A stretch of DNA of 6,769 bases from a virus (Duplodnaviria > Heunggongvirae > Uroviricota > Caudoviricetes), in IMG/VR virus record IMGVR_UViG_2681813261_000024; one strand, written 5' to 3'. The translations under genes and the position numbers were made by a program. Each line of letters starts with the position of its first letter. Positions within the stretch are counted from its first letter, which is position 1. A model generated the notes under the pieces. It had not been told where the DNA came from. It saw only the letters and a list, made by a program, of their open reading frames with translations, and did no database searches. Positions 547-5,081 of this stretch are shown here, piece by piece.

Positions 547-1136
547 TGGATTCGTTACAGGATGATTATACAAAGCTGCTGTACGGACTGATGCCGCCGG
601 GGCCTGCATGGTCAGATACCGACGGTGTACTTGACGGTCTGGCACCATCGCTTGTGCGTGTTCACCAGCGGGCTGATGAACTGGTGATTGAAATCGATCC
701 CGGTCAGTCCACAGAGCTGATTGAACGTTATGAAGAATTGTATGGTTTACCTGATTCCTGTTCCCCTGTCGGAACCCAGACATTACGCCAGCGTCAGCAA
801 CGTCTTGAAGCAAAAGCCAATGTGGCTGGTGGCATAAATGAGCAGTTCTTCCTGGATCAGCTTGAGGCGCTGGGATATACCGGCGTAACGATCGAACAGT
901 TCCAGCACTTGGATGCAAGCCCCGATCCGGAATGGGGAGATCGCTGGCGTTATTTCTGGCGTGTGACGTTGCCGATGGATGCCGGTGCTCAGTGGCAGAC
1001 ATGCACGGACGCCTGCAACACACCGATCCGGACGTGGGGGGATACGGTTGCGGAGTGCGTGATTAATAAATTATGTCCGTCACACACCGTCGTTTTATTT
1101 TCCTATCCAGATGAGGATGAAGATGCACAGGATTGA
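546..1136 (+). CDS. Phage baseplate/tail protein, Mu gp48 / e14 YmfQ-like (DUF2313 family, distant P2 gpI analogue)
   Basis: 196-aa ORF with an LMPPGPAW N-terminal motif and a GG....FF...LEALGY.....IEQF central motif resembling the YmfQ/gp48 family (from memory). It sits between the J-like gene and the tail fibre as in Mu-like baseplate modules, with a 1-nt start/stop overlap upstream. Confidence 0.65.
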   Translation: MDSLQDDYTKLLYGLMPPGPAWSDTDGVLDGLAPSLVRVHQRADELVIEIDPGQSTELIERYEELYGLPDSCSPVGTQTLRQRQQRLEAKANVAGGINEQFFLDQLEALGYTGVTIEQFQHLDASPDPEWGDRWRYFWRVTLPMDAGAQWQTCTDACNTPIRTWGDTVAECVINKLCPSHTVVLFSYPDEDEDAQD

Positions 1137-2163
1137 TACGCTGACTGCGGTAAAAGATAAGTTTGGTCCGGGTAAGAACGGATTTACTGACGGAAATCTT
1201 CGCACAGGACGTCTTGCTACCTGGCTGAACAGTGCCATGTGGAATGCCATTCAGGAGGAAATCTGTGGTGTCATTGAGAAGGCCGGGATAGAACTGAATA
1301 AAGAAGAACACGACCAGCTATATAAGGCTATATTATTGCTGGTGGGCGGTGCAATTAACGAAGAGGCATTGCTGATAAAAAATAACCTTTCGGATGTGGA
1401 AGACAGGGATGAGGCTGTTGAAAACCTCGGATTAAAACCCACGGTGGATAAGGCAAAAAATGCCGTTCAGCGTGATGGCGACACCATGACCGGAGAGCTG
1501 AAAATCCGTGGTGTTAATGCGCTGAGGATTTTCAACGAAGCTTTTGGCCTGATTTTTCGTCGTTCGGAAGAGTGCCTGCACCTTATTCCCACCAGTGAAG
1601 GTCAGGGGGAAAATGGCGATATTGGTCCCCTGCGCCCGTTCACCATTAATCTGCGGACGGGTGAAATATCCATGTCGCATAAAGTGTCTGTTGGCGGTGG
1701 TTCGCAGGTCAATGGTGCGCTGGGTATCGGCGTTCAGAACGCCCTGGGGGGGAATTCAATTGTTCTTGGTGATAATGACACCGGATTCAAACAGAATGGT
1801 GATGGCCTGCTGGATGTTTATGCCAATAGCGTGCATGTGTTGCGTTTTCAGAGTGGCAGTATCCAGAGTAATAAAGCTGTAAACGTTACAGGACGGGTAA
1901 CACCGTCAGACTACGGAAACTTTGATGCCCGTTACCAGCAGCGAAATGGTGGCGTGCAGGATGTGCGGTATGGTTATGAAATGTATTACACCCCCGGCAG
2001 TAACACCGTTTCGTGGACATTTCGCTCACCTTCGGGACACGGGCTGTCAGGGATATCGATATCGGATACCGGCCGTAACTCAGCGGATAACGTCAACGGC
2101 GTGTATTACCGACCGCTGCAAAAACTGATTAATGGCACCTGGTATAACGTAGCGAGTATTTAA
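1111..2163 (+). CDS. Tail fibre protein; C-terminal part resembles the P2 gpH receptor-binding region, with a distinct ~110-aa N-terminal anchoring domain
   Basis: 350-aa ORF. The C-terminus (NALGGNSIVLGDNDTGFKQNGDGLLDVYANS ... LINGTWYNVASI) closely matches the recalled P2 gpH C-terminus (NALGGSSIVLGDNDTGFKQNGDGILDVYANS ... INGTWYNVAQV). Start is ambiguous among ATG 1111, 1117 and 1123; 1123 has the best AGGA spacing. It overlaps the end of the upstream gene. Confidence 0.8.
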   Translation: MRMKMHRIDTLTAVKDKFGPGKNGFTDGNLRTGRLATWLNSAMWNAIQEEICGVIEKAGIELNKEEHDQLYKAILLLVGGAINEEALLIKNNLSDVEDRDEAVENLGLKPTVDKAKNAVQRDGDTMTGELKIRGVNALRIFNEAFGLIFRRSEECLHLIPTSEGQGENGDIGPLRPFTINLRTGEISMSHKVSVGGGSQVNGALGIGVQNALGGNSIVLGDNDTGFKQNGDGLLDVYANSVHVLRFQSGSIQSNKAVNVTGRVTPSDYGNFDARYQQRNGGVQDVRYGYEMYYTPGSNTVSWTFRSPSGHGLSGISISDTGRNSADNVNGVYYRPLQKLINGTWYNVASI

Positions 2164-2734: not shown

Positions 2735-4003
2735 ATGTCTGTAGTGATATCAGGTGCGCTGACTGATGGCGCAGGCATCCCCATGTCCGGATGCCAGATT
2801 ATTCTGAAATCCCGTGTAAACACCTCAGAAGTGGTGATGCGTACCAGGGCTGATGTAGTGACCGGAAATAACGGTGAATATTCGTTTGAGGCACAGGTCG
2901 GAAAATATTGCGTGTATCTGAAACGGGACTGGCGCGACGAGTACTGTGTTGGCGACATTGCTGTATACGACGACTCAAAGCCCGGCACGCTGAATGACTT
3001 TCTGATTGCTCCTGATGAGGGCGACCTGAAACCGGATGTCGTCAAACGCTTTGAGGAAATGGTGGCGCAGGCGCAGCAGAGCGCCGGGGCCGCAGCCGGA
3101 AACGCACAGCAGACGGCGCAGGATGTGGCGGCAGCCGCAGGTTATGCCCGCGCAGCAGAGCAGGCCAAAAATGACATTGATGCTGCGCTGACCGGCACTC
3201 TGAAAACGGCTAACCATCTGTCTGAAATCGCAGCAGCAGGCGAAAAGGCACAACAGAAGTCCCGGGATAATCTGGGGCTGAAAAGTGCGGCCACGATGGA
3301 AGCACAGAGCGACATTTACGACCGGACAAAAGGCCGTCTGGCGATACCCGGCGCATTCGGCTTTGGGTGTGCTTTTCTGCCTGAAGATGTTATCCGTTTT
3401 GACACTAAGAGTGATTTCCTGGCCTGGGTAAGGAATGCGCTGCCAGGTGAATATTCCGTTGCTGGCCCCTACGACATCATCATACCCGACACACGGTTTG
3501 AAGGGGTGCTCAGCATCCGGTGGACTGATGCACGCCCTGAGACAACAGAACCGAGGTACAGAGCCAAATCCCTTACTTTTTACGGCATTAACGGCCCCAT
3601 TTATCACACCCGCTACTGCTACTGGCCCATATCCAGACTGACTGGCTGGGTGAAAATAAATATAACCACAGAAGATATTATTTACAGAATCGTGGCGAGC
3701 TCTGTCTGCAACAGATGGGGAGACCCTGACATTGGCGGGCTGATTATTGCTGCGTACCAGGGAGAAGCTGACGGTGATAAAGTCATCAGACTTGTCAGGG
3801 GGCAGTCATACAGAGGCTCACGACTGGGACCGGTGGGGATTTCAGTGCCCAGTACTCCCACCGGAACGTATATAGCATCCCCACAATTTTTCATTACGGG
3901 ATGTTCAGAGCATTCATTACCGGGGTCATATAGCGCCCTGTCCGGGGTGCCGGATGCTCATGTCTCTGGCGCAATGCCCGGGCTTTTTATTCGCACATCG
4001 TGA
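2735..4003 (+). CDS. Side tail fibre protein with lambda Stf-like N-terminal domain, Ala/Gln-rich shaft and unrecognised C-terminal domain
   Basis: 422-aa ORF. The N-terminus (MSVVISGALTDGAGIPMSGCQIILKSR...GEYSF...GKYCVYL...IAVYDDSKPGTLNDFLIA) follows the lambda Stf / StfR pattern (MAVKISGVLKDG...CTIQLKA...VYEDSQPGTLNDFL, from memory). An Ala/Gln-rich low-complexity stretch follows, then a C-terminal ~230 aa with no family I recognise. Confidence 0.75.
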   Translation: MSVVISGALTDGAGIPMSGCQIILKSRVNTSEVVMRTRADVVTGNNGEYSFEAQVGKYCVYLKRDWRDEYCVGDIAVYDDSKPGTLNDFLIAPDEGDLKPDVVKRFEEMVAQAQQSAGAAAGNAQQTAQDVAAAAGYARAAEQAKNDIDAALTGTLKTANHLSEIAAAGEKAQQKSRDNLGLKSAATMEAQSDIYDRTKGRLAIPGAFGFGCAFLPEDVIRFDTKSDFLAWVRNALPGEYSVAGPYDIIIPDTRFEGVLSIRWTDARPETTEPRYRAKSLTFYGINGPIYHTRYCYWPISRLTGWVKINITTEDIIYRIVASSVCNRWGDPDIGGLIIAAYQGEADGDKVIRLVRGQSYRGSRLGPVGISVPSTPTGTYIASPQFFITGCSEHSLPGSYSALSGVPDAHVSGAMPGLFIRTS

Positions 4004-4013
4004 GGAATGCACC

Positions 4014-4520
4014 GTGGAAATTAAAAAAATCATTAATCCCCGTTATACCGAAAGTGGCGCAGTAGACTGTGACGTTTTTTTTGACGACAGGGACCAGGCA
4101 GTCCCCTACACAGCCACCGCTGATGATGTCGCACCGACGGGTCAGCGAATCTGGCAGGAACTGCAAAGTGGCAAATGGGGTGAGATAGCCCCATTCACTG
4201 TGACACCAGAAATGCTGGAAGCGGCCAGAGAGGCCAGACGTCAGGAAATTGAAGCATGGCGCACAGAACAGGAGGCGAAGCCGTTCACGTTTGAATGGAA
4301 CGGTCGTATCTGGAATGCTGGCCCCNNNNNNNNNNNNNNNNNNGATGCCGATAATCAGCAGGTGAAACTGTCGATGCCGGAACTGGAAGAACTGGCGGCA
4401 GCAATGGTGCAGGCGCAGGTCGATCGCAACGATGAGATTTATCGCCGTCAGCGTGAAATGAAAGAGGAGCTGAGTGGTCTGGAGGATTTGGGAACAATTA
4501 GAGCGTTTGATGTTACGTAA
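4014..4520 (+). CDS. Putative tail fibre assembly/chaperone protein (non-canonical); contains an 18-N gap
   Basis: The ORF lies immediately downstream of the fibre gene in the same frame as track ORF 3954-4520. GTG 4014 is preceded by GAGGA (4002-4006) and avoids a 50-nt overlap, so it is my preferred start; ATG 3954 and 3960 are alternatives. The assignment is positional, since the sequence lacks the classic Tfa C-terminal motif. Confidence 0.45.
   Translation: MEIKKIINPRYTESGAVDCDVFFDDRDQAVPYTATADDVAPTGQRIWQELQSGKWGEIAPFTVTPEMLEAAREARRQEIEAWRTEQEAKPFTFEWNGRIWNAGPXXXXXXDADNQQVKLSMPELEELAAAMVQAQVDRNDEIYRRQREMKEELSGLEDLGTIRAFDVT
4326..4343. other. Run of 18 ambiguous bases (N), an assembly gap or masked bases inside the putative chaperone gene
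   Basis: Directly visible as n x18; the length is a multiple of 3 so the frame is preserved and the track shows XXXXXX. Confidence 0.95.
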
Positions 4521-4566
4521 TTGGTAAGCTGCATCGTGTTAAATTGTTACCCTTATTTACAACTAG

Positions 4567-4600
4567 AAAAGCCTCTGACTTCATAATCAGAGGCTTTTTT
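4567..4600. terminator. Bidirectional rho-independent terminator between the phage tail operon (+) and ssrA (-)
   Basis: AAAA, then GCCTCTGA (4571-4578), loop CTTCATAA, TCAGAGGC (4587-4594), then TTTTTT (4595-4600): a perfect 8-bp stem flanked by an A-run and a T-run, so it can act on either strand. Confidence 0.6.
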
Positions 4601-4718
4601 GAAATGCACGTGCATTTTGCGTGTATATTTTTGTCTTTTTCTGGTCCGCTTACTGTCTGGTCAGTGTCCGTAAGTGACTGTTTTTATAGTCTCTGTCCGG
4701 TTGCAGTCCTGTCAAAAG

Positions 4719-5081
4719 TGGTGGAGCTGGCGGGAGTTGAACCCGCGTCCGAAATTCCTACATCCTCGGTACTACATGCTTAGTCAGTCTTTACATTCGC
4801 TTGCCAGCTGCGGACGGACACGCCACTAACAAACTAGCCTGATTAAGTTTTAACGCTTCAACCCCAGGCAGGGCTTCCACGCGATCTCTTTTGGGTTTGA
4901 CCTCTCTTGATCCCCGTCCTAAGAGCGGAGGCTAGGGAGAGAGGGCTCTAAGCAGGTTATTAAGCTGCTAAAGCGTAGTTTTCGTCGTTTGCGACTATTT
5001 TTTGCGGCTTTTTACGAGGCCAACCGCCCCTCGGCATGCACCTTGGGTTTCGCAAATCCCGTCGAATCCAGAATCAGCCCC
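4719..5081 (-). ncRNA. ssrA: tmRNA (SsrA, 10Sa RNA), 363 nt, apparently identical to the E. coli sequence
   Basis: The reverse complement begins GGGGCTGATTCTGGATTCGACGGGATTTGCGAAACCCAAGG and ends GGACGCGGGTTCAACTCCCGCCAGCTCCACCA. It contains the tag reading frame GCAAACGACGAAAACTACGCTTTAGCAGCTTAA (ANDENYALAA*), seen on the + strand as its complement at 4961-4993. Confidence 0.95.

Follow-up and report, generated by a model that had tools for sequence, protein, structure and literature searches.

Where the conserved N-terminal domain of an E. coli prophage tail fibre gives way to the distal part, the fibre gene contains a short sequence resembling the sites used by Din-family invertases, raising the question of whether it is a crossover site, working or disused, or simply fibre coding sequence. 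A Din-family crossover site spans 26 bp, with 12-bp half-sites (about TTC---AAAC-) in imperfect inverted repeat on either side of a 2-bp core, and Din invertases require two such sites together with an enhancer on one supercoiled molecule, the adjacent serine invertase gene carrying the enhancer too. A preliminary description of this locus proposed that the sequence may be the fossil of an inversion switch that was active in an ancestor and has since become fixed in a single orientation. The analysis below suggests that it is probably a degenerate, recombinationally inactive homologue of a gene-internal crossover site of the gixL/pixL type.

The stretch of DNA analyzed here (6,769 nucleotides, referred to as the window) is the right end of an E. 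coli prophage adjoining the 3' end of the tmRNA gene ssrA (4719-5081, minus strand), past which lie smpB and then homologues of ratA and yfjF. The prophage genes are the 3' end of a baseplate J gene (148-546), a gp48/YmfQ protein gene (546-1136), the tail fibre 1 gene (1111-2163, plus strand), a tail fibre assembly gene on the same strand as fibre 1 (2166-2711; Mu U/U'-like, Pfam Caudo_TAP), fibre 2 with a 'prophage tail fibre N-terminal' domain (2735-4003), and a DUF4376 gene (3954-4520). Fibre 1 begins with a conserved, baseplate-proximal N-terminal domain (MHRIDT...QEE..., 1123-1414, plus strand) equivalent to the 'Sc' part of invertible relatives, and has a Mu S-related distal part; its orientation is predicted to be fixed. 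The product of the assembly gene is 49% identical to Mu U' (E=5e-56, plus strand), but the gene contains an in-frame stop at codon 17 (2214-2216; KTAE*YQ versus KTAEQYQ in the strain C311 orthologue) and its longest intact ORF restarts at 2316, which suggests that the chaperone gene is a pseudogene and that the prophage is decaying. Read from its first start, the DUF4376 ORF overlaps the end of fibre 2 by 50 nt (3954-4003) in another frame, and among relatives this arrangement ranges from overlap to a short gap; the gene also contains a run of 18 N at 4326-4343, either a masked stretch or an assembly gap, and its translation therefore carries X residues. The boundary between prophage and chromosome lies within 4533-4718, just before the ssrA 3' end: similarity ends at 4533 in a relative integrated elsewhere, and reaches the query end at 4700 in an ssrA-integrated relative. 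There is a terminator-like hairpin (AAAAGCCTCTGA...TCAGAGGCTTTTTT) at about 4568-4601.

The preliminary description had placed the candidate sequence at 1416-1440, and although the bases are as described, the full 26-mer starts one base earlier, at the preceding C, and occupies 1415-1440 on the plus strand. It consists of an outer (left) half CTGTTGAAAACC (1415-1426), a TC core (1427-1428), and a segment-side (right) half GGATTAAAACCC (1429-1440), and in the fibre 1 frame it reads gCT GTT GAA AAC CTC GGA TTA AAA CCC, encoding A V E N L G L K P. Its left half shares 10 of 12 positions with the hixL half as published (TTCTTGAAAACC) and 10 of 12 with the outer half of pixL (CTCTCGAAAACC), both taken from PMC3241671 Table 3, in agreement with the 9-10 of 12 initially reported. 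Scoring with position weight matrices, as had been suggested, used a locus-derived matrix built from 24 unique halves from Mu, e14 and six more loci with an invertase and an inverted partner, and a second matrix built only from the published hix, gix, cix, pix, mix and bix sites (PMC3241671 Table 3). The left half scores 7.3 bits with the locus-derived matrix and 10.4 bits with the published-site matrix, inside the range of working halves. The right half is degenerate, as first described: it scores -5.4 and 0.5 bits respectively, its nearest published half is only 7/12 identical, and relative to the Din consensus it matches 0/3 of the TTC and has AAT instead of AAA. The location was also well judged, since a tblastn alignment of e14 StfP covers 1123-1434 of the window and ends at the site.

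The other components of a switch are missing. Neither matrix finds a second good full site in the window, no inverted repeat in the window involves 1415-1440, and tblastn with PinE and Gin gives no match in the window, the complete phiP27 genome, 186 or P2, bearing out the preliminary report that the window has neither inverted partner nor invertase gene. There is likewise no minus-strand remnant of an alternative fibre or chaperone gene (Sv'/U') in the window, all of the fibre and chaperone homology being on the plus strand. In relatives, the best inverted 15-mer has at least 3 mismatches, which is at chance level, and in 199 E. coli genomes with matches the alignments are, at the level of assemblies, single same-strand pieces with no break at 1427/1428. 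Two candidates for the missing parts were rejected. The second NLGL motif of the window, in fibre 2 at 3269-3280, is in direct orientation and its DNA is unlike a site; and a weak inverted repeat between 1459-1474 and 2986-3001 (13/16 complementary), considered as a remnant of longer flanking repeats, was dismissed as chance because 2986-3001 lies in the coding sequence of the fibre 2 N-domain and there is no minus-strand fibre homology. Of the features of a functional Din site, 1415-1440 thus has the in-frame location at the constant/variable junction of fibre 1, but not two good halves, an inverted cis partner with the same core, an adjacent invertase or inverted alternative genes.

To place the site among its relatives we surveyed 160 loci with a related N-domain, found by an alignment-based scan; in IMG/VR, at least 553 relatives were confirmed and 80 of these were examined. 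A Pin/Gin-type match lies 2-4 kb downstream of the fibre start in 13 of the 160 loci, and 11 of these 13 yielded an N-[LV]-G-L site for scoring. Neither half falls below 11.7 bits in any of the 11, and in ten an inverted partner was identified that precedes the invertase by about 80 bp; at the remaining locus (L019) a partner was looked for and not found. Invertible relatives therefore do exist at this same locus, in e14 (PMC12529663), in Mu and in 11 of the 160 surveyed loci, so that prophages combining the baseplate J, YmfQ and fibre order with an invertase at this position, whose absence would have counted against the initial proposal, are on record. The experimentally supported EC958 sites (PMC4134206), which were kept out of matrix building, have a segment-side half that is always strong (12.3-19.0 bits) and an outer half that varies from -11.3 to 14.3 bits. 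A strong segment-side half is thus present in every working site scored.

The exact 26-mer of the window is found in 21 loci. None of the 21 has an invertase or a partner site, and this includes nine in which 5 kb or more of DNA is available downstream. Across the family the sites form a continuum, running from perfect ones accompanied by an invertase, to perfect ones lacking it (L137, L140, L143-L147, L062 and L063 are examples), to half-eroded ones and finally to fully drifted codons. In the N-domain subgroup that shares the NNLSD motif of the window, the NLGL codons have drifted or the motif has changed, and the sample contains no invertase in this subgroup. Near-perfect 12-2-12 sites are present at the fibre hinge in a set of loci (L137, L140, L143-L147, L062, L063, L066, L010-L012 and L017) in which neither an invertase nor an inverted partner was found, with at least 5 kb of downstream DNA available for all except L143 and L147; these sites may be recently orphaned, or may be served by an invertase elsewhere in the genome. 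At two Arsenophonus loci, L019 (10407-11039) and L024, the fibre ORF ends at or just past the NLGL hinge, with an invertase homologue within about 100 nt of the fibre ORF in L019 and a truncated invertase homologue in L024, and both look like collapsed or decayed inversion modules.

Comparison with complete E. coli genomes shows that the site has also travelled with a small piece of DNA. Many matches start at query position 255 (window 1377), and some span only 1377-1493 (plus strand; KNNLSDVEDRDEAVENLGLKPTVDKAKNAVQRDGDTMTG), a junction cassette that includes the site. The matches starting at 1377 sit in P2-like 'tail-collar' fibres with tfa and sheath genes directly after them, as arranged in 186, and no invertase was found near the cassette in the P2-like contexts examined. 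The site therefore rides a short junction cassette circulating among non-invertible fibres. This cassette of about 117 nt (NNLSDVEDRDEAVENLGLKPTVDKAKNAVQRDGDTMTG; loci L170 and L171) is 93-96% identical between phiP27-like and P2-like 'tail-collar' fibres, the N-termini of which appear unrelated, and it behaves as a small mobile mosaic unit between two conserved peptide motifs. Among 17 distinct close relatives there is a low-diversity block at 1123-1480, with diversity rising only after GDTMTG near 1483, and the working mosaic junction of the window's clade is about 50 nt past the site, after GDTMTG. We considered the site as a conservation island, but it is indistinguishable from the N-domain block (pi 0.017 vs 0.059, over only 26 nt), and as a working mosaic breakpoint, but the breakpoints are at about 1377, 1486 and 1750 and not at 1427/1428.

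How much of this resemblance calls for a relationship with crossover sites at all? As a bare motif the 26-mer is within chance expectation: with the published-site matrix it ranks 1 of 6744 in the window, yet 20% of random windows match or beat it, and with the locus-derived matrix 97% of random windows contain a better full site. Half-sites equal to the left half are expected two to ten times per random 6.8-kb window across both matrices (about ten with the locus-derived matrix), as would be the case if an A/T-rich 12-mer with no relationship to crossover sites simply happened to resemble a half-site. We nevertheless find pure coincidence scarcely credible, given that the sequence lies in the exact register of gixL, pixL and the 186 site, in homologous genes with homologous flanks on both sides. 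The non-random element of 1415-1440 is this position: at the constant/variable junction, within a homologous fibre gene, it keeps a codon register common to Mu gixL, e14 pixL and the annotated phage 186 site. It could also be supposed that only the peptide is constrained, the NLGL hinge being kept for structure, the DNA likeness being a by-product, and the cassette and lineage never having been tied to inversion. The N-[LV]-G-L motif indeed occurs widely across the family, whether or not an invertase is present, the bare motif falls short of significance, and no close relative has an invertase. To separate codon choice from peptide, every synonymous encoding of AVENLGLKP was enumerated, with weights taken from codon usage in the prophage itself. 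The right half does not stand out for its peptide (P=0.31), but the left half falls in the top 2.3% of synonymous encodings for likeness to a working half-site (P=0.023), and the peptide is therefore not the full explanation of the left half. This codon-choice signal is modest and comes from one site, and genuine crossover sites give P of 0.0002 or less in the same test. The fibre 2 NLGL motif (AAT CTG GGG CTG, 3269-3280, plus strand) served as an internal control and gives no site-like signal (P=0.87), showing that an NLGL peptide does not force crossover-like DNA, and many other NLGL fibres use AAT/TTG/CTG/GGG codons that are unlike a site. With the 77% nucleotide identity between window 1427-1501 and gene K of phage 186, and a clear DNA alignment to Mu gixL and its flanks, we consider an explanation by peptide constraint unlikely; codon constraint, which the preliminary description had named as a possible refutation, accounts for the right half but not fully for the left.

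A different possibility is that the sequence is a weak live quasi-site, which invertases acting in trans (PinE, PinQ, PinR, or that of a P2-like prophage) join at low frequency with another TC-core site, so that fibre ends are swapped between prophages or chromosomal DNA is inverted. PinE, PinQ and PinR have been shown experimentally to act in trans on the e14 sites (PMC12529663), a passage of PMC4134206 cites inversion in trans and Cin 'quasi-sites' for which the central dinucleotide is decisive, E. coli prophages have TC-core sites, for instance TTATTTAAAACC-TC-GGTTTACGAGAA (PMC4134206), and the cassette with the site is found in several fibre contexts. Such activity would mean that Din invertases drive the exchange of fibre ends between prophages, beyond inversion within one. 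It is nonetheless very unlikely here: the segment-side half is without the features of every working site scored, the window has no cis partner, and the mosaic breakpoints in E. coli fall elsewhere than at 1427/1428. The requirement of Din invertases for two sites and an enhancer on one supercoiled molecule also weighs against it.

The positional and sequence homology to working sites, the asymmetry of the two halves, and the lack of a partner and an invertase instead favor the reading of 1415-1440 as an inactive crossover-site homologue. The sequence is the DNA for a conserved A-x-E/Q-N-L-G-L hinge that joins the constant N-domain to the variable distal part in the group of fibres including e14 StfP, Mu S and 186 K. 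In invertible relatives, the hinge codons AAC CTN GGT TTR ... GAA form a 12-2-12 palindrome, and its inverted counterpart lies some 80 bp before the start of the invertase gene. In the window, the constant-side half is still site-like, while the segment-side half is without the GGT codon and the GAA end that all working sites keep, having GGA for GGT and Lys-Pro (AAA CCC) for x-Glu (NNN GAA). With this half eroded, and with no partner and no invertase, 1415-1440 would therefore now be only coding DNA, and fibre 1 and its chaperone would be fixed in one orientation. If only the right half is limiting, its repair to GGTTTAAAAGAA would restore activity.

The kinship with Din-family sites that was originally suspected thus holds, the sequence being a positional and sequence homologue of Mu gixL and e14 pixL, but a former switch of this prophage, locked in one orientation, is not supported by the data. 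The 21 loci with the same site and the complete phiP27 genome are all without invertase or partner, the window retains no inverted Sv'/U' remnant, and the right half is of the non-invertible 186-K type; nor does the NNLSD-motif subgroup, with its drifted NLGL codons and no invertases in the sample, speak for an invertible ancestor of this lineage. We infer that the DNA likeness reflects common descent with working sites, either by loss of an ancestral switch or by import of the cassette from another fibre gene, and import by recombination is at least as likely as loss of a switch.

The sequence at 1415-1440 is a real but ordinary feature, and its practical impact is small. The idea of a vestigial crossover site has been on record for decades in the annotation of phage 186 gene K (GenBank U32222), and passages in PMC4134206 and PMC3241671 cite Sandmeier (1994) as having discussed the phenomenon. 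The continuum of sites would fit a history in which fibre-switching modules were gained and lost repeatedly around a single conserved hinge motif. It also advises caution in annotation: a crossover-like half-site at an NLGL hinge is not evidence of phase variation unless the segment-side half is strong as well and both an inverted partner and an invertase are there.

Among the known systems closest to the window is phage 186, in which a misc_recomb feature at 12962-12987 of U32222, annotated as a "Mu-like inversion crossover site", maps onto window 1415-1440. Its 26-mer, TTGTCCAGAATA-TC-GGTTTAAAACCC, matches the register of the window's site exactly and has the same TC core, and its segment-side half GGTTTAAAACCC is one base off the window's GGATTAAAACCC, a type of half that was encountered in non-invertible fibres alone. 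The peptide encoded by both is N-[LI]-G-L-K-P-T-V-D-K-A, the coding sequence 3' of the site is homologous, with homology to 186 K, like that to Mu S, continuing across the site, and both are without invertase and without partner site. The outer half of the 186 site, TTGTCCAGAATA, is more degenerate than that of the window (-2.0 vs 7.3 bits), and 186, unlike the window, has a P2-type fibre N-terminus. Gene H of P2 itself has no N-[LIV]-G-[LI] motif and is therefore unusable as a comparison. The sequence at 1415-1440 can be aligned in register with both the 186 feature and gixL and, as in 186, phiP27 and the cassette-bearing P2-like prophages, it lies in an element without invertase and partner, and we class it with the vestigial sites of the 186-K type. 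In the Stx2e phage phiP27, gene L54 is 95% identical in nucleotide sequence over window 1111-1520 with an identical 26-mer, and the two-fibre module is at attR, the right end of the prophage, as in the window; unlike the window, phiP27 has another integration site and other distal fibre parts.

In e14 and Mu the corresponding sites belong to working switches. The fibre 1 gene directly follows the gp48/YmfQ gene and has an N-domain of the form MHRIDT...DKFGxGKNGFT...QEE followed by A-x-x-N-L-G-L, as is characteristic of StfP/Mu S-type fibres, and this N-domain is 58% identical to e14 StfP residues 1-65. The e14 gene order in E. coli K-12 is also like that of the window, with a baseplate J pseudogene, ymfQ, stfP and tfaP, and then inverted tfaE-stfE and pinE. 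The pixL site in stfP, CTCTCGAAAACC-TT-GGTTTGGGAGAA, encodes A-L-E-N-L-G-L-G-E and shares the window's position and frame (ALENLGL vs AVENLGL), the outer halves differing at 2/12 positions. Unlike the window, e14 has a strong segment-side half (GGTTTGGGAGAA, 18.8 bits) and a TT core, an inverted partner 1797 bp away, the inverted tfaE-stfE genes, and pinE; its repeats bound the 1797-bp P segment, which PinE, PinQ and PinR invert (PMC12529663). In Mu, the gixL site in gene S (TTATCCAAAACC-TC-GGTTTACAGGAA), at which Gin inverts the G segment, shares with the window the TC core and an identical central 10-mer, AAAACCTCGG. It encodes I-Q-N-L-G-L-Q-E followed by TVNRARNAVQ, where the window encodes ENLGLKP followed by TVDKAKNAVQ, and the coding sequence is homologous on either side (NLGLQETVNRARNAVQKNGDT against NLGLKPTVDKAKNAVQRDGDT). 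The right half of the window is without the ...GGAA end of gixL, and Mu, unlike the window, has a perfect inverted gixR, the S'/U' genes and gin. Mu S residues 146-194 align to window 1357-1500, spanning the site, and residues 268-503 align to 1486-2157 (E=3e-18), so that the distal fibre is related to Mu S as the chaperone is to U/U'. The phiP27-like prophage family would thus carry a 186-type vestigial crossover sequence at the very hinge where Mu, P1 and e14 have working sites.
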